DNA of 64,000 bases from Shigella phage KRT47: sequence record MN781580, one strand, 5' to 3'. Positions 51,880-63,268 of this stretch are shown piece after piece. Position numbers and translations under genes: made by a program. The stretch's first letter is position 1. Each line of letters starts with the position of its first letter. The notes beneath the pieces were generated by a model. The model did no database searches. It saw only the letters and a list, made by a program, of their open reading frames with translations, and was not told the origin of the DNA.

Positions 51880-51887
51880 TATAAATA
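51880..51887 (+). promoter_or_regulatory. T4-type late promoter TATAAATA for gene 34
   Basis: Exact TATAAATA about 35 nt upstream of gene 34 ATG. Confidence 0.65.
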
Positions 51888-51921: not shown

Positions 51922-54900
51922 ATGGCCGAGATTAAAAGAAAGTTCAGAGCAGAAGATGGTCTGGACGCAGGTGGTGATAAGATTATTAATGTCGCGTTAG
52001 CTGATCGTACCGTAGGAACTGACGGTGTAAACGTTGACTACTTAATCCAAGAAAACACAGTTCAACAATATGATCCAACTCGTGGATATTTAAAAGATTT
52101 CGTAATCATTTATGATAACCGTTTTTGGGCTGCTATAAATGATATTCCAAAACCGGCAGGAGCTTTTAATAGCGGACGCTGGAGAGCATTACGTACCGAT
52201 GCTAACTGGATTACAGTCTCATCTGGTTCATATCAATTAAAATCAGGTGAAGCTATTTCGGTTAACACTGCAGCTGGTAATGATATTACATTTACTTTAC
52301 CATCTACTCCAATTGACGGTGATACTATCATTCTCCAAGATATTGGAGGAAAACCTGGAGTTAACCAAGTTTTAATTGTAGCTCCAGTGCAAAGTATTGT
52401 AAACTTCAGAGGCGAGCAAGTACGTTCAGTACTAATGACTCATCCAAAGTCACAGTTAGTTTTAATTTTTAGTAATCGTCTGTGGCAAATGTATGTAGCT
52501 GATTATAGTAGAGAAGCTGTAGTTGTAACACCAGCGAATACTTATCAAGCACAATCCAACGATTTTATCGTACGTAGATTTACTTCTGCTGCACCGATAA
52601 ATATTAAACTTCCGAGATTTGCTAATCACGGCGATATTATTAATTTCGTCGATTTGGATAAATTAAACCCTCTTTATCATACAATTGTTACGACATATGA
52701 TGAAACAACATCAGTACAAGAAGATGGAACTCATTCCATTGAAGGCCGTACATCGATTGACGGTTTCTTGATGTTTGATGATAATGAGAAATTATGGAGA
52801 TTGTTTGACGGGGACAGTAAAGCACGTTTACGTATCATAACGACTAATTCAAATATTCGTCCAAACGAAGAAGTTATGGTATTTGGTGCAAATAACGGAA
52901 CAACTCAAACGATTGAGCTTCAGCTTCCAACTAATATTTCTGTTGGTGATACTGTTAAAATTTCCATGAATTACATGAGAAAAGGACAAACAGTTAAAAT
53001 CAAAGCTGCAGGTGAAGATAAAATTGCTTCTTCAGTTCAATTGCTGCAATTCCCAAAACGTTCAGAATATCCGCCTGAAGCTGAATGGGTGACTGTTCAA
53101 GAATTGGTTTTTAATGGCGAAACTAATTATGTTCCAGTTTTACAACTTGCTTATATAGAAGATTCTGACGGAAAATACTGGGTTGTACAACAAAACGTTC
53201 CAACCGTAGAAAGAGTTGATTCTTTAAACGATTCTACTAGAGCAAGATTAGGCGTGATTGCTTTAGCTACACAAGCGCAAGCTAATGTCGATTTAGAAAA
53301 TTCTCCACAAAAAGAATTAGCAATTACTCCAGAAACATTAGCTAACCGTACTGCTACAGAAACTCGTAGAGGTATCGCGAGAATAGCAACCACTGCTCAA
53401 GTAAATCAGAACACCACATTCTCTTTTGCTGATGATATTATCATTACTCCTAAAAAGCTGAATGAAAGAACTGCTACAGAAACTCGTAGAGGTGTCGCTG
53501 AAATTGCTACACAACAGGAAACTAATGCAGGTACTGATGATACTACAATCATCACTCCTAAAAAGCTTCAAGCTCGACAAGGTTCTGAATCATTATCTGG
53601 TATTGTAACCTTTGTATCTACCGCAGGAGCTACTCCAGCTTCTAGTCGTGAATTAAATGGTACAAACGTTTATAATAAAAACACTAATAATTTAGTTGTT
53701 TCGCCTAAAGCTCTGGATCAGTATAAAGCTACTCCAACACAACAAGGTGCAGTAATTTTAGCAGTTGAAAGTGAAGTAATTGCTGGACAAAGCCAAGAAG
53801 GATGGGCAAATGCGGTTGTAACGCCAGAAACGTTACATAAAAAGACATCAACTGATGGAAGAATTGGTTTAATTGAAATTGCTACGCAAAGTGAAGTTAA
53901 TACAGGAACTGATTATACTCGTGCAGTCACTCCTAAAACTTTAAATGACCGTAAAGCAACTGAAAGTTTAAGTGGTATAGCTGAACTTGCTACGCAAGTT
54001 GAATTCGACGCAGGCGTCGACGATACTCGTATCTCTACACCATTAAAAATTAAAACCAGATTTAATAGTACTGATCGTACTTCTGTTGTTGCTCTATCTG
54101 GATTAGTTGAATCAGGAACTCTCTGGGACCATTATACCCTTAATATTCTTGAAGCAAATGAGACACAGCGTGGTACACTTCGTGTAGCTACACAAGTTGA
54201 AGCTGCTGCAGGAACATTAGATAATGTTTTAATAACTCCTAAAAAGCTTTTAGGTACTAAATCTACTGAAGCACAGGAAGGTGTTATTAAAGTTGCAACT
54301 CAGTCTGAAACTGTGGCTGGAACGTCAGCAAATACTGCTGTATCTCCAAAAAATTTAAAATGGATTGTGCAGAGTGAACCTACTTGGGCAGCTACTACTG
54401 CGATAAGAGGCTTTGTTAAAACTTCATCTGGTTCAATTACATTCGTTGGTAACGATACAGTTGGTTCAACACAGTCGTTAGAATTATACGAGAAAAATAG
54501 CTATGCAGTATCACCATATGAATTAAACCGTGTATTAGCAAATTATTTGCCATTAAAAGCAAAAGCTGCTGATACAAATTTATTGGATGGTCTAGATTCA
54601 TCTCAATTCATTCGTAGGGATATTGCACAGACAGTTAATGGTTCACTAACCTTAACTCAACAAACGAATCTGAGTGCCCCTCTTGTATCATCTAGTACTG
54701 CTACGTTTGGCGGATCAGTTTCGGCAAACAGCACATTAACTATTTCTAATACTGGAACGGCAACTCGTCTGATTTTTGAGAAAGGACCTCAAACTGGAAC
54801 TAACCCAGTACAGACGATGACTATCAGAGTTTGGGGAAATCAGTTTGGTGGCGGTTCAGATACAACACGTTCTACTGTATTTGAAGTTGGTGATGAAACG

Positions 54901-55791
54901 TCTAATCACTTTTATTCTCAACGTAATAAAGCTGGGAATATAACGTTTAGTATCAATGGTACTGTAATGCCAATAAATGTTAATGCTTCGGGTTCTTTGA
55001 ATGCGAACGGCGTTGCAACATTTGGTAGTTCAGTTACAGCCAATGGCGAATTCATCAGCAAGTCTGCAAATGCTTTCAGAGCAATAAATGGCGACTATGG
55101 ATTCTTTATTCGCAATGATGCTGCTAACACCTATTTTATGCTTACTGCATCGGGTGATCAGACTGGCGGATTTAATGGATTACGTCCTTTAGCTATTAAC
55201 AATACATCTGGCCAAGTAACGATTGGTGAAAGCTTAATCATTGCCAAAGGTGCTACTATAAATTCAGGTGGTTTAACTGTTAACTCGAGAATTCGTTCTC
55301 AGGGCACTAAAACATCTGACTTATATACCCGTGCGCCAACATCTGATACTGTAGGATTCTGGTCAATCGATATTAATGATTCAGCTACTTATAACCAGTT
55401 CCCAGGTTATTTTAAAATGGTTGAAAAAACTAATGAAGTGACTGGGCTTCCGTACTTAGAACGTGGCGAAGAAGTTAAATCTCCTGGTACATTGACTCAG
55501 TTTGGTAACACACTTGATTCGCTTTACCAAGATTGGATTACTTATCCAACGACTCCAGAAGCACGTACCACTCGCTGGACACGTACATGGCAGAAAACCA
55601 AAAACTCTTGGTCAAGTTTTGTTCAGGTATTTGATGGAGGTAACCCTCCTCAGCCGTCTGATATCGGTGCTTTACCATCTGATAATGCTACAATGGGGAA
55701 TCTTACTATTCGTGATTTCTTACGAATTGGTAATGTTCGCATTATTCCTGACCCAGTGAATAAAACGGTTAAATTTGAATGGGTTGAATAA
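51922..55791 (+). CDS. 34: long tail fibre proximal subunit gp34
   Basis: 1289 aa, T4 gp34 length; recurring ITPKKL...TETRRG...IATQ repeat motifs. Confidence 0.95.
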   Translation: MAEIKRKFRAEDGLDAGGDKIINVALADRTVGTDGVNVDYLIQENTVQQYDPTRGYLKDFVIIYDNRFWAAINDIPKPAGAFNSGRWRALRTDANWITVSSGSYQLKSGEAISVNTAAGNDITFTLPSTPIDGDTIILQDIGGKPGVNQVLIVAPVQSIVNFRGEQVRSVLMTHPKSQLVLIFSNRLWQMYVADYSREAVVVTPANTYQAQSNDFIVRRFTSAAPINIKLPRFANHGDIINFVDLDKLNPLYHTIVTTYDETTSVQEDGTHSIEGRTSIDGFLMFDDNEKLWRLFDGDSKARLRIITTNSNIRPNEEVMVFGANNGTTQTIELQLPTNISVGDTVKISMNYMRKGQTVKIKAAGEDKIASSVQLLQFPKRSEYPPEAEWVTVQELVFNGETNYVPVLQLAYIEDSDGKYWVVQQNVPTVERVDSLNDSTRARLGVIALATQAQANVDLENSPQKELAITPETLANRTATETRRGIARIATTAQVNQNTTFSFADDIIITPKKLNERTATETRRGVAEIATQQETNAGTDDTTIITPKKLQARQGSESLSGIVTFVSTAGATPASSRELNGTNVYNKNTNNLVVSPKALDQYKATPTQQGAVILAVESEVIAGQSQEGWANAVVTPETLHKKTSTDGRIGLIEIATQSEVNTGTDYTRAVTPKTLNDRKATESLSGIAELATQVEFDAGVDDTRISTPLKIKTRFNSTDRTSVVALSGLVESGTLWDHYTLNILEANETQRGTLRVATQVEAAAGTLDNVLITPKKLLGTKSTEAQEGVIKVATQSETVAGTSANTAVSPKNLKWIVQSEPTWAATTAIRGFVKTSSGSITFVGNDTVGSTQSLELYEKNSYAVSPYELNRVLANYLPLKAKAADTNLLDGLDSSQFIRRDIAQTVNGSLTLTQQTNLSAPLVSSSTATFGGSVSANSTLTISNTGTATRLIFEKGPQTGTNPVQTMTIRVWGNQFGGGSDTTRSTVFEVGDETSNHFYSQRNKAGNITFSINGTVMPINVNASGSLNANGVATFGSSVTANGEFISKSANAFRAINGDYGFFIRNDAANTYFMLTASGDQTGGFNGLRPLAINNTSGQVTIGESLIIAKGATINSGGLTVNSRIRSQGTKTSDLYTRAPTSDTVGFWSIDINDSATYNQFPGYFKMVEKTNEVTGLPYLERGEEVKSPGTLTQFGNTLDSLYQDWITYPTTPEARTTRWTRTWQKTKNSWSSFVQVFDGGNPPQPSDIGALPSDNATMGNLTIRDFLRIGNVRIIPDPVNKTVKFEWVE

Positions 55792-55799
55792 GAGGTATT

Positions 55800-56915
55800 A
55801 TGGAAAAATTTATGGCAGAGTTTGGACAAGGATATGTCCAAACGCCATTTTTATCGGAAAGTAATTCAGTAAGATATAAAATAAGTATAGCGGGTTCTTG
55901 CCCGCTTTCTACGGCAGGACCATACGTTAAATTTCAAGATAATCCTGTTGGAAGTCAAACATTTAGCGCAGGTCTTCATCTAAGAGTTTTTGACCCTTCC
56001 ACCGGAGCATTAGTTGATAGTAAGTCATATGCTTTTTCTACTTCAAATGATACTACATCAGCTGCTTTTGTTAGTTTCATGAATTCTTTGACGAATAACA
56101 GACTTGTTGCTATATTAACTAGCGGAAAGGTTAATTTTCCTCCTGAAGTAGTATCTTGGCTAAGAGCCGCAGGAACGTCTGCTTTTCCATCTGATTCTTT
56201 ATTGTCAAGATTTGACGTATCATATGCTGCTTTTTACACTTCTTCTAAAAGAGCTATTGCATTGGAGCATGTTAAACTAAGTAATAGAAAAAGCACAGAT
56301 GACTATCAAACTATTTTAGATGTTGTATTTGACAGTTTAGAAGACGTTGGAGCTACGGGATTTCCTAAAAGAACATATGAAAGCGTTGAGCAATTTATGT
56401 CAGCGGTTGGTGGAACTAATAACGAAATTGCACGTCTACCAACTTCAGCTGCGATAAGTAAATTATCTGACTATAATTTAATCCCTGGTGATGTTCTTTA
56501 TCTTAAAGCACAGTTATATGCTGATGCCGATTTACTTGCTCTTGGAACTACAAATATATCCATCCGTTTTTATAACGCATCTAATGGATATATTTCCTCG
56601 ACACAAGCTGAGTTTACCGGGCAAGCTGGGTCTTGGGAATTAAAGGAAGATTATGTGGTTGTTCCAGAAAACGCTGTTGGATTTACGATATATGCACAAA
56701 GAACAGCACAAGCTGGTCAAGGTGGTATGAGAAGTTTAAGCTTTTCTGAAGTGTCAAGAAATGGAGGTATTTCGAAACCTGCTGAATTTGGCGTCAATGG
56801 TATTCGTGTTAATTATATCTGTGAATCTGCTTCACCTCCGGATATAATGGTACTTCCTACGCAAGCATCGTCTAAAACTGGTAAAGTGTTTGGGCAAGAA
56901 TTTAGAGAAGTATAA
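55800..56915 (+). CDS. 35: long tail fibre hinge connector gp35
   Basis: 371 aa; synteny 34-35-36-37. Confidence 0.92.
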   Translation: MEKFMAEFGQGYVQTPFLSESNSVRYKISIAGSCPLSTAGPYVKFQDNPVGSQTFSAGLHLRVFDPSTGALVDSKSYAFSTSNDTTSAAFVSFMNSLTNNRLVAILTSGKVNFPPEVVSWLRAAGTSAFPSDSLLSRFDVSYAAFYTSSKRAIALEHVKLSNRKSTDDYQTILDVVFDSLEDVGATGFPKRTYESVEQFMSAVGGTNNEIARLPTSAAISKLSDYNLIPGDVLYLKAQLYADADLLALGTTNISIRFYNASNGYISSTQAEFTGQAGSWELKEDYVVVPENAVGFTIYAQRTAQAGQGGMRSLSFSEVSRNGGISKPAEFGVNGIRVNYICESASPPDIMVLPTQASSKTGKVFGQEFREV

Positions 56916-56920
56916 ATTGA

Positions 56921-56938
56921 GGGAGCCTTCGGGTTCCC
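56921..56938 (+). terminator. terminator-like hairpin GGGAGCC-UUCG-GGUUCCC after gene 35
   Basis: 7-bp stem (one G-U), UUCG loop, followed by TTTTTCTTT. Confidence 0.65.
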
Positions 56939-56946
56939 TTTTTCTT

Positions 56947-56954
56947 TATAAATA
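56947..56954 (+). promoter_or_regulatory. T4-type late promoter TATAAATA for gene 36
   Basis: Exact TATAAATA 24 nt upstream of gene 36 ATG. Confidence 0.65.
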
Positions 56955-56977: not shown

Positions 56978-57643
56978 ATGGCTGATTTAAAAGTAGGTTC
57001 AACAACTGGAGGCTCTGTCATTTGGCATCAAGGAAATTTTCCATTGAATCCAGCCGGTGACGATGTACTCTATAAATCATTTAAAATATATTCAGAATAC
57101 AATAAACCACAAGCTGCGGATAACGATTTCGTTTCTAAAGCTAATGGTGGTACTTTTGCATCAAAGGTAACATTTAATGCTGGTGTTCAAGTACCATATG
57201 CTGTAAACAATACAAACCCGTGCGGTATTTATCCAGGTAATGGCGATGCAGCTACTTTTGCTACAGCAAATATTGATATTGTTTCGTGGTATGGTATTGG
57301 TTTTAAATCATCACAGGGTTCAGCAGCCCGAACTGTGGTAATTAACACACGTAATGGTGATATTAGCACAAAAGGTGTTGTGTCGGCGACTGGTCAAGTA
57401 AGAAGTGATGCGGCCGCTCCTATAGCAGCGAATGACCTTACTAGAAAGGACTATGTTGATGGAGCAATAAATACTGTTACGGCAAATGCGGATTCTAGAG
57501 TTTTCCGTAAAGGAGACACTATGACTGGAAACTTAACCGCACCAAACTTTTTCTCACAGAATCCTGCATCTCAACCTTCACATGTTCCACGATTTGACCA
57601 AATCGTAATTAAGGATTCTGTTCAAGATTTCGGCTATTATTAA
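56978..57643 (+). CDS. 36: long tail fibre distal subunit connector gp36
   Basis: 221 aa, T4 gp36 length. Confidence 0.92.
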
Positions 57644-57651
57644 GAGGACTT

Positions 57652-60600
57652 ATGGCTACTTTAAAACAAATACAATTTAAAAGAAGCAAAACCGCAGGTG
57701 CACGTCCTGCTGCTTCAGTATTAGCCGAAGGTGAATTGGCTATAAACTTAAAAGATAGAACAATTTTTACTAAAGATGATTCAGGAAATATCATTGATCT
57801 AGGTATTGCTAAAGGCGGTCAAATTGATGGAAATGTGACTATTGATGGAACTTTACGCGTCAATGGACCAATAAACAACTTTGGAAATTTTTCTACAAGT
57901 GGTACTATTACGGCAAGTAATATTGTTTCTGCTACAGTATTCAGATCAACATCCGGTTCATTTTATACAAGAGCAGTAAATGATACATCAAATGCCCATC
58001 TTTGGTTTGAAAATACAAATGGATCGGAGAGAGGTGTTTTATATTCAAAACCACAGTCTGAAAATGAAGGCGTAATCACAATGCGTGTTCGTCAAGGAAC
58101 CGCAGCAGGGGCTCAAAATTCAGAATTTCATTTCATTTCTACTGATGGTGGTATTTTCCAGGCACGTAAATTAACTGCTTTAACTTCTATTAGTACACCA
58201 ACTATTAGTGTTAATTTAATTAATCATGATTCTAAAGCCTTTGGGCAATACGATTCACAATCGTTGGTTCAGTATGTTTATCCTGGAACCGGTGAAACTA
58301 ACGGAGTAAACTATCTTCGTAAAGTTCGTGCTAAATCTGGCGGCACTATGTGGCATGAAATCTGTACAGCTCAGACTGGACAAGCTGATGAAATGTCATG
58401 GTGGACTGGTAATACTCCTCAATCTAAACAGTATGGTATTCGTAATGATGGCCGAATAGCTGGCCGTAATAGCCTTGCATTAGGTACATTCACTACGGGT
58501 TTCCCGTCTAGTGATTATGGAAATACTGGGGTAATGGGTGATAAGTATCTTGTTCTCGGTGACACTGTAACTGGTCTGAAATATATTAAACAAGGTGTTT
58601 ATGATTTAGTTGGTGGAGGTTATTCCGTTGCATCTATTACGCCTGATAGTTTCCGTAGTACTCGTAAAGGTATATTTGGTCGCTCAGAAGATCAAGGTAC
58701 AACATGGACTATGCCTGGAACGAATGTTGCATTTTTATCAGTTCAAACACAGGCTGATGAAAACGCTGCTGGAGACGGCCAGACACATATTGGCTATAAC
58801 TCAGGCGGAAAAATGAACCACTATTTCCGTGGTAAAGGCAAAACTAATATTAATACTCAAGAAGGCATGGAAGTTAACCCGGGTATTCTTAAAATAGTAA
58901 CCGGTGCAAATAATGTAATGTTTTATGCTGATGGCGGTATTACATCCACTAAGCAGCTTTCAATATATAATGGTGTATATTTAGCAGCTAATAATTCTAC
59001 TGCTGGGCTAACATTCGCTCCAACTACTACAGTTGACGGCACTAAGCAAATTTTGTGGGAAGGTGGTAAGCGTGCTGGACAGAATAAAAGCTATGTAACT
59101 GTTAAAGCGTGGGGTAATTCATTTAACGCATCTGGCGATCGTAATCGTGAAACGGTTTTTGAAGTAGCTGACGGACAAGGTTATTATTTTTATGCGCAGC
59201 GTGTAGCTCCTGCATCAGGTTCAACAACTGGAGTAATTCAATTTAGAATTGCTGGAGCATTATTAACCGGTGGGGGTATTACATCATCAGGTTCTATTGT
59301 TACTGAGTCAAGTTTAGTTGCAAATAATGGATTGTCTGTAAATGGACAAGCTAAATTTGGTGGAACAGCAGATGCATTAAGAATTTGGAATGCTGAATAC
59401 GGTGCTATTTTCCGCCGTTCGGAAACTAACTTTTATATTATTCCAACTTTACAAAATGCTGGAGAATCGGGCGGTATAAGTAATTTACGCCCATTTACCA
59501 TCAATCTCGCAAATGGTAGTGTTATGATGGGCAATCATACACAAGCCGGAAAAAATTTGCTTACTATTGATAACGTATCAAAATTCGTTCAAACCGATGT
59601 TAGACTTCGAGTTAATATGGATTCTGACGCTATTGTGGTAAATGCTTCATCTCAAGCTGCATCTAACTTTATTCAAGGACGTAAGGCTGATGTTACAAAA
59701 TGGTATTTAGGTATTGGCGATGGCGGAAACGTCGTTCGTATGCATAATTACACCTACTCTCACGGTATTGCATTAAACTCTGATACTGTCGATATTACTA
59801 AGCCTCTTAAAATTAATGATATTCGAATTGGTACTGATGGCAACATCACAGGCGGTACTGGTAATTTTGCCAACTTAAATACAACGTTAAATCGTAAAAC
59901 CAGCGTGGGCGGTTGGGCTGGTAGTTCTGTTGACGGATGGTATAAATTTGCTACGGTAACAATTCCTCAGGGTACTGGTACAGTGACTTTTAAGATTTCC
60001 GGCGGCGCTGGTTTTAATTTTAAAAGCTATAGCCAAGCTTCTGTTGCAGAAATAGTTCTTCGCACGGGTAATAATAATCCTAAAGGCATAAACGCTGTAC
60101 TGTGGAATAGGTCAGACCTGAGTTTTAATCAGATAGCTACTATGAATACATCTGGCGATACTTATGATGTATACGTGTTCTGTGCCGGTTATACAAATGC
60201 ATTAGTGGTTGAATATTCCTGTAGTGAAAACTCTTCGGTAACCGTAGTCGGTCTTAACGGAGGCATTCAGCCAGTTGTTGATGCATTGCCTGATGGACAT
60301 GTTGTAGGTAAAACAGTTCGTCTGTTAAATAATATTGGCGGAACTTTCGCAGCTGGAGAATCTAGCATTGTTACTCGCGGTGAATACGTTACTGATAATC
60401 AAAGAGGCATGCGTATTAAATCTAACGGTAATAATATCGGTTCTAACGCAGCTTTAATTAGAAATGATGGCGGAAGTTTTTATATTTTAGCTACAGATAA
60501 AAATACGGAAGAAAAACCCGATGCAGCTAATGGTGATTGGAATGGCTTAAGACCTTTCTCTATTAATATGGCTGATGGTCGCGTTGGTATGAACCACGGG

Positions 60601-61482
60601 TTGAATATTACTGGTGGTGGATTAAACGTTACTGGTGGTAATACTAACTTAGGTAATATTAGCTCAAGACTAGTTTCATACGCCCGCGCGCCATCTGGAT
60701 GGGGAGATACCTCAGATGCCATGAAATCTAAAATCACCTTTATGGCAGATCATGGTGATTTATCTAATTCAGGTAGTTATTATCCTATTGTCGGTGCATG
60801 GAGTAACTATGGTTCAGCGGGTTATCGTCAAACCTTTGAGTTCGGATGGGTCGGTTCCGGCACTACAGCTGGTTGGCGCGATGGTATTATTCGTATTCGC
60901 GGAGATAATGCTAATGGCCAGCAAGCAAGATGGCGCTTTACAATGGACGGTACTTTAGATTGCCCTGGTAAAGTACTGCTACCACAAACAGGTGCCTTTG
61001 GTGTCAATACATCAAATGGTCTCGGTGGAAATAGTATAACATTTGGTGATAATGATACTGGTATTAAGCAAAATGGTGATGGATTATTAGACATATATGC
61101 GAACAGCGTACAAGTATTCCGTTTCCAAAACGGTGATTTGTACTCATACAAAAATATAAATGCTCCAAACGTTTATATTCGTTCTGATATTCGTTTAAAA
61201 TCCAACTTCAAACCTATCGAAAATGCGCTTGATAAAGTTGAAAAACTTAACGGTGTCATTTACGATAAAGCTGAATACATCGGTGGAGAGGCAATTGAAA
61301 CTGAAGCGGGTATTGTGGCTCAAACGTTACAAGACGTTTTACCAGAAGCTGTCCGTGAAACAGAAGACAGTAAGGGTAATAAAATACTCACTGTTTCTTC
61401 TCAAGCCCAGATTGCTCTTCTAGTTGAAGCTGTGAAAACACTTTCTGCTCGTGTAAAAGAACTTGAATCTAAACTTATGTAA
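57652..61482 (+). CDS. 37: long tail fibre distal subunit gp37 with C-terminal intramolecular-chaperone-like domain
   Basis: 1276 aa; C-terminal SDIRLK motif and coiled-coil end typical of auto-cleaving chaperone domains. Confidence 0.92.
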
Positions 61483-61484
61483 AA

Positions 61485-61500
61485 GAGGGCTTCGGCCCTC
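61485..61500 (+). terminator. hairpin GAGGGC-TTCG-GCCCTC after gene 37
   Basis: 6-bp GC stem with UUCG loop between genes 37 and 38. Confidence 0.45.
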
Positions 61501-61512
61501 TAAGGATTTTTA

Positions 61513-62307
61513 ATGGCAATTGTAGGTGTTCCTGGCTGGATTGGTGAATCTGCCGTGAATGAAACTGGACAACGTTGGATGGATGCTGCGATGAAAGCTG
61601 TTCGTGTTTCAGTTCCTGGTTGGATGAGCTCAATGGCTGGACAATCTAAAGAAGTATATTACAGTATTGGTGCTAGCAATTCTTATAATAAAGACACACT
61701 AATAAATTATCTCAAATCTCAAGGTAGTACTCCTGTTGTTGTTACTATTACTGGTAACCTAGTTTCTTCATCTGCAGGGCAACCTTGCTTAGATTTTCCT
61801 AGCTCATTAACTAATGCTTATGTAACGCTTATTATAAATGGCGGTGTAACAGTATATGGTCGCGGAGGACGCGGCGCGCAAGCGGGAAACCAGGCGGGTG
61901 AAGCTGGTGGTACTGCAATTAACAATGGTATAGGTACTCGTCTACGAATCACTAACAATGGAGCAATCGCTGGCGGCGGTGGTGGTGGTGGCGCCCAATC
62001 AACTGATAATGGATGGGGAGGTAAATATGTTTCTGGCGGCGGCGGCGGACGTCCTTTCGGAGCTGGTGGTAATAATGGAGCAAAAGCTCCGGGTGCATCA
62101 GCATCTTTAACATCTCCAGGCGCAGGCGGAAAAATGTATTCCGGCGTTGGATACTATGGTGGTGACGGTGGTAATGTTGGTGAACGAGGTAAGGATGCGG
62201 TTAGATTGAACGGCTATTCGAACTCACCTGGCGCAGCTGGTAAAGCTGTTACTGGAAACGCTCCAACTTGGACTAAAGTTGGTACAATATATGGTGCAAG
62301 AGTATAA
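61513..62307 (+). CDS. 38: tail fibre tip adhesin gp38 (T2-type, glycine-rich motifs)
   Basis: 264 aa; conserved N-terminus and poly-Gly motifs (GGGGGGG, GGGGG) separated by variable segments. Confidence 0.88.
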   Translation: MAIVGVPGWIGESAVNETGQRWMDAAMKAVRVSVPGWMSSMAGQSKEVYYSIGASNSYNKDTLINYLKSQGSTPVVVTITGNLVSSSAGQPCLDFPSSLTNAYVTLIINGGVTVYGRGGRGAQAGNQAGEAGGTAINNGIGTRLRITNNGAIAGGGGGGGAQSTDNGWGGKYVSGGGGGRPFGAGGNNGAKAPGASASLTSPGAGGKMYSGVGYYGGDGGNVGERGKDAVRLNGYSNSPGAAGKAVTGNAPTWTKVGTIYGARV

Positions 62308-62338: not shown

Positions 62339-62995
62339 ATGGCAGCACCTAGAATATCATTTTCGCCCTCTGATATTCTATTTGGTGTTCTAGATCGCTT
62401 GTTCAAAGATAACGCTACCGGGAAAGTTCTTGCTTCCCGGGTAGCTGTCGTAATTCTTTTATTTATGATGGCGATTGTTTGGTATAGGGGAGATAGTTTC
62501 TTTGAGTACTATAAGCAATCAAAGTATGAAACATACAGTGAAATTATTGAAAAGGAAAGAAATGCACGCTTTGAATCTGTCGCCCTGGAACAACTCCAGA
62601 TAGTTCATATATCATCTGAGGCAGACTTTAGTGCGGTGTATTCTTTCCGCCCTAAAAACTTAAACTATTTTGTTGATATTATAGCATACGAAGGAAGATT
62701 ACCTTCAACAATAACTGAAAAATCACTTGGAGGATATCCTGTTGATAAAACTATGGATGAATATATAGTTCATTTAAATGGACGTCATTATTATTCTGAC
62801 TCAAAATTTGCTTTTTTACCAACTAAAAAGCCTACTCCCGAAATAAACTACATGTACAGTTGTCCATATTTTAATTTGGATAATATCTATGCTGGAACGA
62901 TAACCATGTACTGGTATAGAAATGATCATATAAGTAATGACCGCCTTGAATCAATATGCGCTCAGGCGGCCAGAATATTAGGAAGGGCTAAATAA
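62339..62995 (+). CDS. t: holin T
   Basis: 218 aa, T4 holin length; single N-proximal TM segment VAVVILLFMMAIVWY; AGGAGGG SD. Confidence 0.93.
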   Translation: MAAPRISFSPSDILFGVLDRLFKDNATGKVLASRVAVVILLFMMAIVWYRGDSFFEYYKQSKYETYSEIIEKERNARFESVALEQLQIVHISSEADFSAVYSFRPKNLNYFVDIIAYEGRLPSTITEKSLGGYPVDKTMDEYIVHLNGRHYYSDSKFAFLPTKKPTPEINYMYSCPYFNLDNIYAGTITMYWYRNDHISNDRLESICAQAARILGRAK

Positions 62996-63268
62996 TTATT
63001 TGTTCGTATACATCTCTAGATATCGATATACACCCTCAAAACCCTCGTTGAATTCGTCGATGAGGGTTTTCTTATCTTCTTGAGTTAATTCAGAAACAAT
63101 TTTACGGAATGAATTCTGATTTAATTTTCTACCTTCATGCGTTACTCCAATCTCATTCAAAAATGCAATAAAATTAGCACGATTTTCAACAATATCTTCT
63201 CTGGAAAATTTAATCAAAATAGACGCAACAGTAATAATTTCACGAACTGTATCAATGTTTTTATTCAT
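62996..63268 (-). CDS. asiA: anti-sigma70 factor AsiA
   Basis: 90 aa, T4 AsiA length; recognised sequence. Confidence 0.9.
   Translation of the reverse strand: MNKNIDTVREIITVASILIKFSREDIVENRANFIAFLNEIGVTHEGRKLNQNSFRKIVSELTQEDKKTLIDEFNEGFEGVYRYLEMYTNK

Follow-up and report, generated by a model that had tools for sequence, protein, structure and literature searches.

A T2-type long-tail-fibre tip module in Shigella phage KRT47: a predicted self-cleaving gp37 and a gp38 adhesin probably directed at OmpC

Descriptions of the self-cleaving chaperone of the tail-fibre protein gp37, of the gp38 protein that caps the fibre and of the glycine-rich and hypervariable design of gp38 go back to the 1980s, and structures became available for phage S16 in 2018 and for phage PP01 in 2026. 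The receptors are FadL and OmpF for T2, OmpA for M1 and Ox2, Tsx for T6, and OmpC for S16. In S16 the last 113 residues of gp37 are reported to be autocleaved after trimerisation, baring the surface on which gp38 docks (PMC7917993), and three tryptophans of gp38 enter three symmetrically placed pockets in the trimer of gp37 (PMC6851490). Processing of the C-terminus has been reported for T2-type gp37 as well, gp38 has been described by Trojet et al. as four hypervariable segments and five glycine-rich motifs, and modular exchange at the gene 37-38 locus is known behaviour (PMC3157838). A fifth gp38 loop was recognised from the S16 and PP01 structures (S16: PMC6851490). The locus studied here comprises genes 37 and 38 of Shigella phage KRT47 (sequence record MN781580), within a stretch of 64,000 nucleotides (nt) that is referred to below as the window. 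The two genes appear to encode a T2-type tip module, in which a self-cleaving gp37 is capped by a gp38 adhesin with OmpC as the most likely primary receptor; the probability of this reading is put at roughly 0.85. Such a module is a well-described system that is already known, and identical or near-identical proteins are present in public phage genomes.

Gene 37 (57652..61482) encodes the precursor of the distal long-tail-fibre subunit, with 1276 amino acids (aa) and 135.9 kDa, as identified from its open reading frame (ORF), Pfam matches and homology. Gene 38 (61513..62307) encodes a T2-type tail-fibre tip adhesin of 264 aa, as identified from its ORF, Pfam and matches to solved structures. 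Both ORFs have exactly the coordinates and lengths given in a preliminary description of this DNA, which was made from the sequence alone. All parts of these two genes for which coordinates are given below lie on the plus strand.

The C-terminus of gp37 is formed by a Peptidase S74 chaperone domain of 99 residues and 10.8 kDa (aa 1178-1276; 61183..61479), delimited by the Pfam match, the catalytic dyad and the predicted fold. The family PF13884 (Peptidase_S74, 'chaperone of endosialidase') is matched over its whole model (1-58/58) with 56.5 bits against a cut-off of 22 and an expectation value (E) of 3.5e-15. The pattern S[DE]xxxK is matched in gp37 only by the motif SDIRLK, of which there is a single copy (aa 1178-1183; nt 61183-61200); Ser1178 and Lys1183, five residues apart, are the catalytic pair at the start of the S74 domain. 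All 20 aligned homologues that carry the domain have S1178, D1179 and K1183, and so do T2, T6, PP01, S16, Ox2 and M1. The preliminary description was right that SDIRLK is present, but the motif opens the 99-residue C-terminal domain and does not stand at the very end of gp37 as had been stated. Its assignment of the C-terminus to the auto-cleaving chaperone type, which depended on a conserved Ser/Lys dyad, agrees with the intact and invariant S1178 and K1183, the full-length Pfam match and the predicted fold.

That fold was taken from an AlphaFold2 model of gp37 aa 1100-1276. A protein search with the C-terminal 177 aa returned mostly short fragments and pieces of prophage tail fibres, and therefore the alignment behind the model was shallow (20 sequences). 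The mean predicted local distance difference test score (pLDDT) was 76.7, with values of 84-95 over the chaperone part, and a terminal helix was placed at aa 1250-1275 (block-mean pLDDT 91-95 over aa 1250-1276). When the model was compared with the PDB by Foldseek, the matches included MyRF ICA (7dc3, E 6e-6), the endosialidase chaperone (3gw6, 1e-3), the GA-1 chaperone (3gud) and the S16 tip (6f45). With the S74 chaperones of solved structure (K1F endoNF 3GW6, GA-1 3GUD and MyRF ICA 7DC3), the domain of KRT47 has in common the Pfam family, the S-x4-K dyad, the C-terminal position on a trimeric fibre and the predicted fold. It differs from them in its cargo, which is a T-even distal fibre and not a tailspike or a transcription factor, and it is 17-26% identical to the solved domains.

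The SDIRLK region aligns with the cleavage site of S16 (DLNVS^SDRRIKK) and with that of the Yersinia fPS phages (DVYIR^SDGRLKI) (PMC7917993), and for this reason the autocleavage site of KRT47 is predicted between R1177 and S1178 (61180..61185). A cut at this position would yield a mature chain of 125.1 kDa and a chaperone of 10.8 kDa, as computed. Compared with T2 gp37, the chaperone tail is identical at 99 of 99 residues and the last 200 aa at 199; together with the S16 alignment, this identity suggests that the tail is released autoproteolytically once the trimer has folded. Immediately before the site lies the distal tip of gp37 (aa ~1122-1177; 61015..61182), which ends in an NVYIR strand. 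A phmmer search matched aa 1122-1274 with the S16 gp37 tip (6f45_A, E 9.5e-11), and the tip, which consists of beta strands in the model, was aligned with S16, T2, T6 and PP01. After cleavage it would present the predicted docking surface for gp38, by analogy with S16 (PMC7917993, PMC6851490). Alternatively, virions might retain the S74-like tail, which would serve as a structural coiled-coil cap, with gp38 bound elsewhere. Cleavage of KRT47 gp37 is an inferred step, which leaves some room for this; however, the catalytic pair of Ser and Lys is intact and does not vary among the homologues, the tail is the same as that of T2 gp37, whose processing is on record, and in S16 the docking surface for gp38 is exposed only after the chaperone has been removed. 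A retained tail is accordingly regarded as extremely improbable.

The identity of gp38 was examined in the same way. Two Pfam families cover the protein, namely PF21721 (Gp38_N) at aa 1-42 (64.7 bits, model 1-40/40) and PF05268 (GP38) at aa 47-264 (245.3 bits, 8.3e-73, model 218/218), and the Pfam scan of gp38 gave no chaperone family. Its sequence matches both solved adhesins, PP01 gp38 (9v85, 1.9e-55) and S16 gp38 (6f45_D, 7e-46). The model of gp38, built from 96 homologues with a pLDDT of 90.4, has the fold of a beta-helix with a polyglycine-II sandwich and matches 9v85 with E 1e-25, a root-mean-square deviation of 1.1 Å and a target template modelling (TM) score of 0.95, and 6f45_D with E 2e-22 and TM scores of 0.81-0.86. 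In a BLASTP comparison, KRT47 gp38 showed no resemblance to T4 gp38 (183 aa), the best alignment covering 5 residues with E 0.81, and the identity of a T4-type assembly chaperone was rejected on this ground. The earlier claim that gp38 is a tip adhesin of the T2/T6 type, and not the chaperone of T4, was thus upheld.

Many public records, among them ime09 (JN202312), T6 (MH550421), SA21RB and teqsoen, give T2-type gp38 the label 'distal long tail fiber assembly catalyst'. Such labels are an annotation error, by which the function of T4 gp38 has been passed on with the gene name. They are also what could be cited for a second alternative, that gp38 serves chiefly as a gp37 assembly factor as in T4 and that gp37 itself recognises the receptor. 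Against it stand the lack of similarity to T4 gp38, the full-length matches to adhesin families and to both solved adhesins, and the structure of gp37, which is without a T4-type C-terminal receptor-binding extension and ends in the T2-identical chaperone of the self-cleaving type. Hardly any weight is given to this alternative.

Three parts of gp38 are comparatively constant. The N-terminal attachment domain (aa 1-46; 61513..61650) has three short helices (aa 10-18, 23-29 and 38-41 in the model) with W9, W22 and W37, which are invariant in an alignment of eight references including T2, T6, Ox2, M1, PP01, S16 and Sf22. The aligned references were without gene 38 of phage K3, accession X05675 being that of Ox2; a tblastn search with M1 gp38 was of little use, as the low-complexity filter broke the matches at glycine runs. 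The beta-helix body (aa 47-114; 61651..61854) is made of model strands with a pLDDT of ~97 and superposes on 9v85 and 6f45_D. The conserved C-terminus (aa 241-264; 62233..62304; mean entropy 0.87), with model strands at aa 246-260, closes the beta-helix. Over aa 1-114 the protein is 75% identical to T2 and 40-47% to PP01, T6 and Ox2; in the C-terminal half PP01 is nearest (63%).

The remaining part of gp38 is rich in glycine, which makes up 34% of aa 116-246 vs 10% of aa 1-115 and forms runs of seven (aa 154-160) and five (aa 175-179). Column entropy (H) was computed over 113 aligned adhesins on the residues of KRT47 gp38. Conserved glycine-rich blocks were found at aa 115-121, 132-160, 175-186 and 217-226 (mean H 0.35-0.9), with a short and less conserved GAGG block at aa 203-206 (mean H 1.59). 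The second motif (aa 132-160; 61906..61992; H 0.59) holds the run of seven glycines and the third (aa 175-186; 62035..62070; H 0.48) reads GGGGGRPFGAGG. Between the conserved blocks, five variable blocks with a mean H of 1.9-2.7 comprise 64 residues and contain stretches that align with loops A-E of the PP01 crystal structure: segment 1 with a loop-A equivalent (aa 122-131; 61876..61905; H 1.86), segment 2 with loop-B (aa 161-174; 61993..62034; H 2.71), segment 3 with loop-C (aa 187-202; 62071..62118; H 1.98; 75% identity to PP01), segment 4 with loop-D (aa 207-216; 62131..62160; H 2.50) and segment 5 with loop-E, including Y235 (aa 227-240; 62191..62232; H 2.30). The architecture of poly-Gly motifs separated by variable segments, which had been proposed from the letters of the sequence, is therefore borne out by the entropy profile and the two glycine runs, and the five segments (61876-62232) all fall inside the variable span suggested earlier (about 61860-62250). 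This layout agrees with the one of Trojet et al., with the addition of the fifth loop known from the S16 and PP01 structures.

Based on these results, the assembly and function of the tip can be outlined as follows. gp37 would be made as a precursor of 1276 residues, in which the chaperone (S1178-M1276) nucleates trimerisation of the shaft. The chaperone would then excise itself at R1177|S1178 by means of the Ser1178/Lys1183 dyad, and the mature gp37 of 1177 residues and 125 kDa would form the fibre end with its NVYIR strands. A single gp38 would cap this end, giving a presumed 3:1 stoichiometry of gp37 to gp38, with W9, W22 and W37 entering three equivalent pockets of gp37. The beta-helix body would bear the polyglycine-II sandwich, from which the five hypervariable loops would project and contact the bacterial receptor, and the loops, being identical to those of Sf22, would bind the porin OmpC as primary receptor. 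A place for gp38 in the virion at the fibre tip, where it would determine the receptor, is suggested by T2, S16, PP01 and the gp38-swap data in relatives. The S16 tip (PDB 6F45) has the same architecture, with its trimeric gp37 tip, autocleaved chaperone, monomeric gp38, three docking tryptophans, beta-helix and polyglycine-II sandwich. S16 differs in belonging to the genus Gelderlandvirus, in a gp38 of 47% identity with loops of 12%, and in the length of its chaperone (113 aa vs 99 aa in KRT47).

The choice of OmpC depends mainly on the gp38 loops. KRT47 gp38 is 100% identical to that of ECP2301, 99.2-99.6% to those of ime09, CrRp10 and ESh26, and 98.9% to that of Shigella phage Sf22; in the whole Sf22 group (Sf22, ECP2301, ime09, CrRp10, ESh26, SA21RB and SP21535) the identity is 98.1-100%. 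All 64 hypervariable positions are shared with Sf22, and the three differences (K28R, G89R and A262S) are outside the loops. Hypervariable identity is much lower to the other references, with 47% for PP01, 23% for T2, 18% for M1, 14% for Ox2, and 12% for both T6 and S16. T2 or T6 specificity was rejected for the loops on account of these values, and because of the 23% the T2 receptors FadL and OmpF are not expected. The earlier assignment to a T2/T6-type module consequently stands for the architecture and the T2-identical chaperone tail, but not for the specificity loops, which are of the Sf22 type. According to papers that cite the Sf22 work, Sf22 has a broad Shigella host range, its infection relies strongly on OmpC and ompC mutants resist it (PMC12892980, PMC11654681). 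In PP01, gp38 binds OmpC (PMC12892980). OmpC is consequently considered the likely primary receptor of KRT47, since the loops are those of a phage that needs OmpC and the nearest solved relative binds it; what likelihood is left is spread over other porins.

PP01 offers the best solved match of gp38, with a common loop-B motif (W-x-GKYV), NNGA in loop-C and the conserved Y214 and Y235. Its adsorption residues K168, Y169, Y209 and Y230 are kept in KRT47 as K171, Y172, Y214 and Y235. The differences are also considerable: the identity in gp38 is 54% overall and falls to 40% for the N-terminal half, there are two additional residues in loop-D, and PP01 has a gp37 tip and chaperone of another type, with 27-38% identity per block in the last 126 aa. 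In PP01, loop-B is essential for adsorption, loop-E governs specificity, and A228 is important (PMC12892980).

Several points weigh against the proposed reading. PP01 Y159 and A228 are replaced by Q162 and N233 in KRT47, and loops A, D and E are unlike those of PP01, so that the binding mode of PP01 is not simply transferable. One loop substitution can be enough to switch the receptor, as in RB68, where Q206L changes it from OmpF to OmpW (bioRxiv 10.64898/2026.04.02.716166). The papers citing the Sf22 work show a dependence of infection on OmpC, and not direct binding of OmpC by gp38. Both the cleavage of gp37 and the receptor have been carried over to KRT47 from its relatives. Finally, the model of the gp37 C-terminus shows a trimeric domain as a monomer and is not reliable over the first 26 residues (pLDDT <50).

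These points bear on a third alternative, in which the architecture is T2-type but the receptor is FadL, OmpF, Tsx, OmpA or lipopolysaccharide (LPS), and the OmpC need of Sf22 reflects another step or holds for Shigella only. The T2-like gp37 and N-terminal half of gp38 would fit it, as would the facts that loop point mutations can alter the receptor and that, in the sources citing Sf22, the OmpC requirement is one for infection. However, the loops that choose the receptor are wholly those of Sf22 and only 12-23% those of T2, T6, Ox2 and M1, and beyond the Sf22 group the nearest characterised adhesin, both by sequence and by structure, is the OmpC binder PP01. gp38 similarity has moreover been found to predict the receptor (PMC12032242), in a study that makes no mention of ime09, CrRp10, Sf22 or ECP2301. 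A receptor other than OmpC on a T2-type tip is thus judged unlikely, and OmpC is retained as the probable target of the KRT47 adhesin.

Porin specificity changes when the distal half of gp38 is exchanged (bioRxiv 10.64898/2026.04.02.716166). The proposal of the preliminary description that host range is set by the variable segments of gp38 can be kept as far as the primary receptor is concerned. It does not hold beyond that, because short tail fibres and LPS, the O-antigen and intracellular defence, which are outside this module, also affect host range. Near-identical adhesins are found on phages isolated on Escherichia, on all four Shigella species and on Citrobacter rodentium, while the gp37 shafts of these phages are quite different. 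The Sf22-type adhesin might represent a second and structurally distinct way of gripping OmpC with a polyglycine sandwich, with loops B and C as in PP01 and loops A, D and E different; this is offered as a tentative idea, with the odds somewhat against it.

The comparison of gp37 with its relatives shows how the tip is combined with different shafts. KRT47, Sf22 and ECP2301 have the same gp37 tip and chaperone and share the last ~126 residues of gp37, but the shafts of Sf22 and ECP2301 are only 62.9% and 56.7% identical overall to that of KRT47, with indels. Only ime09 is close (96.7% overall), the exceptions being a patch at aa 51-110 and an indel of six residues after aa 995. The patch (57802-57981) has 58% identity to ime09 in the block of aa 51-100 and 92% in the next block, and 96-100% identity to Sf22; outside it gene 37 is otherwise 98-100% identical to ime09, and the patch resembles a small tract of recombination close to the gp36-proximal end. 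T2 has the same gene order, an identical N-terminal stretch of 50 aa in gp37 and 75% identity in the N-terminal half of gp38. It differs in the length of gp37 (1341 aa vs 1276 aa) and in the mid-shaft, where several blocks are 16-50% identical; from aa 751 to 1276 the identity is again 78-100% per 50-residue block, and the middle of gp37 is a patchwork. Judged by this pattern of identity, gp37 is a mosaic. Pfam domains in gp37 are Gp34_trimer (aa 492-617), gp37_trimer (aa 661-734) and Peptidase_S74 (aa 1178-1235). A part of the mid-shaft (aa 427-659; 58930-59628) matches the C-terminal trimerisation region of gp34 (Gp34_trimer; PDB 4uxe, 5nxf and 9x3r; E ~3e-15), which indicates that the proximal and distal half-fibres have shared or duplicated shaft modules.

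Exchange is also apparent beyond the named phages. Many fragments named 'phage tail protein' in genomes of E. coli, Shigella and Salmonella resemble the segment of gp37 just before the chaperone domain (aa 1100-1177; 60949-61182), with 54-77% identity across 30-50% of a query of 177 aa. Some of them carry the tail-fibre domains PF03406 and PF12571, and the similarity would fit a horizontal exchange in which T-even phages and prophages trade segments of the fibre tip. Three metagenomic relatives differ from KRT47 in different parts of gp38 and reveal which units are exchanged. In the first (P0002), 18 of the 22 differences are in hypervariable segments; the second (P0008) has an N-terminal half of 98% identity with 50 of the 64 hypervariable positions changed; and in the third (P0025) the N-terminal half is different and the C-terminal half is 80% identical.

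The surroundings of the two genes are those of a T4-like phage. The order 34-35-36-37-38-t-asiA is canonical for Tequatrovirus, to which the window belongs by its sequence, and gene 38 is flanked by gene 37 and the t holin gene as in T2, T6, PP01, S16 and Sf22. Genes 34 (51922-55791), 35 (55800-56915) and 36 (56978-57643) precede gene 37, and gene 38 is followed by t (62339-62995; Pfam Phage_holin_T, 5e-116) and, on the minus strand and convergent with t, by asiA (62996-63268). The 17.6 kb on the 5' side of gene 37 are 95-97% identical to many T4-like phages of E. coli and Shigella, and the stretch of genes 37-38 is 96.6% identical to ime09. In gp35, aa 58-123 gave a Pfam match to ILEI (E 4.8e-8, 33.8 bits vs a cut-off of 27); ILEI stands for the interleukin-like epithelial-mesenchymal transition (EMT) inducer or FAM3-type domain, a surprising name for a phage hinge connector.

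A T4-type late promoter motif, TATAAATA, is present as an exact match upstream of gene 36 (56947..56954, plus strand), and a second one is at 51880 on the same strand ahead of gene 34. From knowledge of T4, the former probably drives a late transcript of genes 36-37-38. It stands just 3' of a terminator-like C(UUCG)G hairpin after gene 35 (56919-56940). A scan for sigma-70 promoters gave 24 matches vs 21.8 expected by chance; this is no excess, and the matches were disregarded. Between genes 37 and 38 there is another C(UUCG)G hairpin (AGAGGGC-TTCG-GCCCTCT; 61484..61501, plus strand), immediately 3' of which is the ribosome-binding site of gene 38 (AAGGA; 61502-61506, plus strand). This hairpin is identical in T2, where record X04442 labels it 'stem-loop, potential terminator', and has the same position in PP01, T6 and S16 with other stem sequences; the stems among these phages are AGAGGGC/GCCCTCT, GAGGGGC/GCCCCTT and AGAGCC/GGCTCT. 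Since the folding energy of the region was unremarkable against shuffled sequences (z = -1.0), the case for the hairpin is made by conservation of position more than by energy. It suggests a conserved RNA role, as a terminator, attenuator or stabiliser of mRNA. As t and asiA abut without intergenic space, any terminator of a late transcript 36-37-38-t would need to fall inside asiA; a terminator-like hairpin of 14 pairs was found on the plus strand at 63038-63070, within the asiA coding sequence.

The present analysis adds to the known system an exact predicted cleavage site, the coordinates of five loops and the prediction of OmpC as receptor of an Sf22-type adhesin. It brings no new insight into T-even tail fibres, and its use is practical, in naming the surface protein that is likely to be needed (OmpC) and in predicting host range. 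Resistance to KRT47 would be predicted to arise mainly through ompC or regulators of ompC, and the targets for retargeting the phage would be the 64 residues in the five loops (nt 61876-62232). If a second OmpC grip does exist, its mode of binding might tolerate the variation of OmpC across Escherichia, the four Shigella species and Citrobacter rodentium, and the adhesin would be a naturally broad and portable OmpC 'cassette', useful in the engineering of host range.

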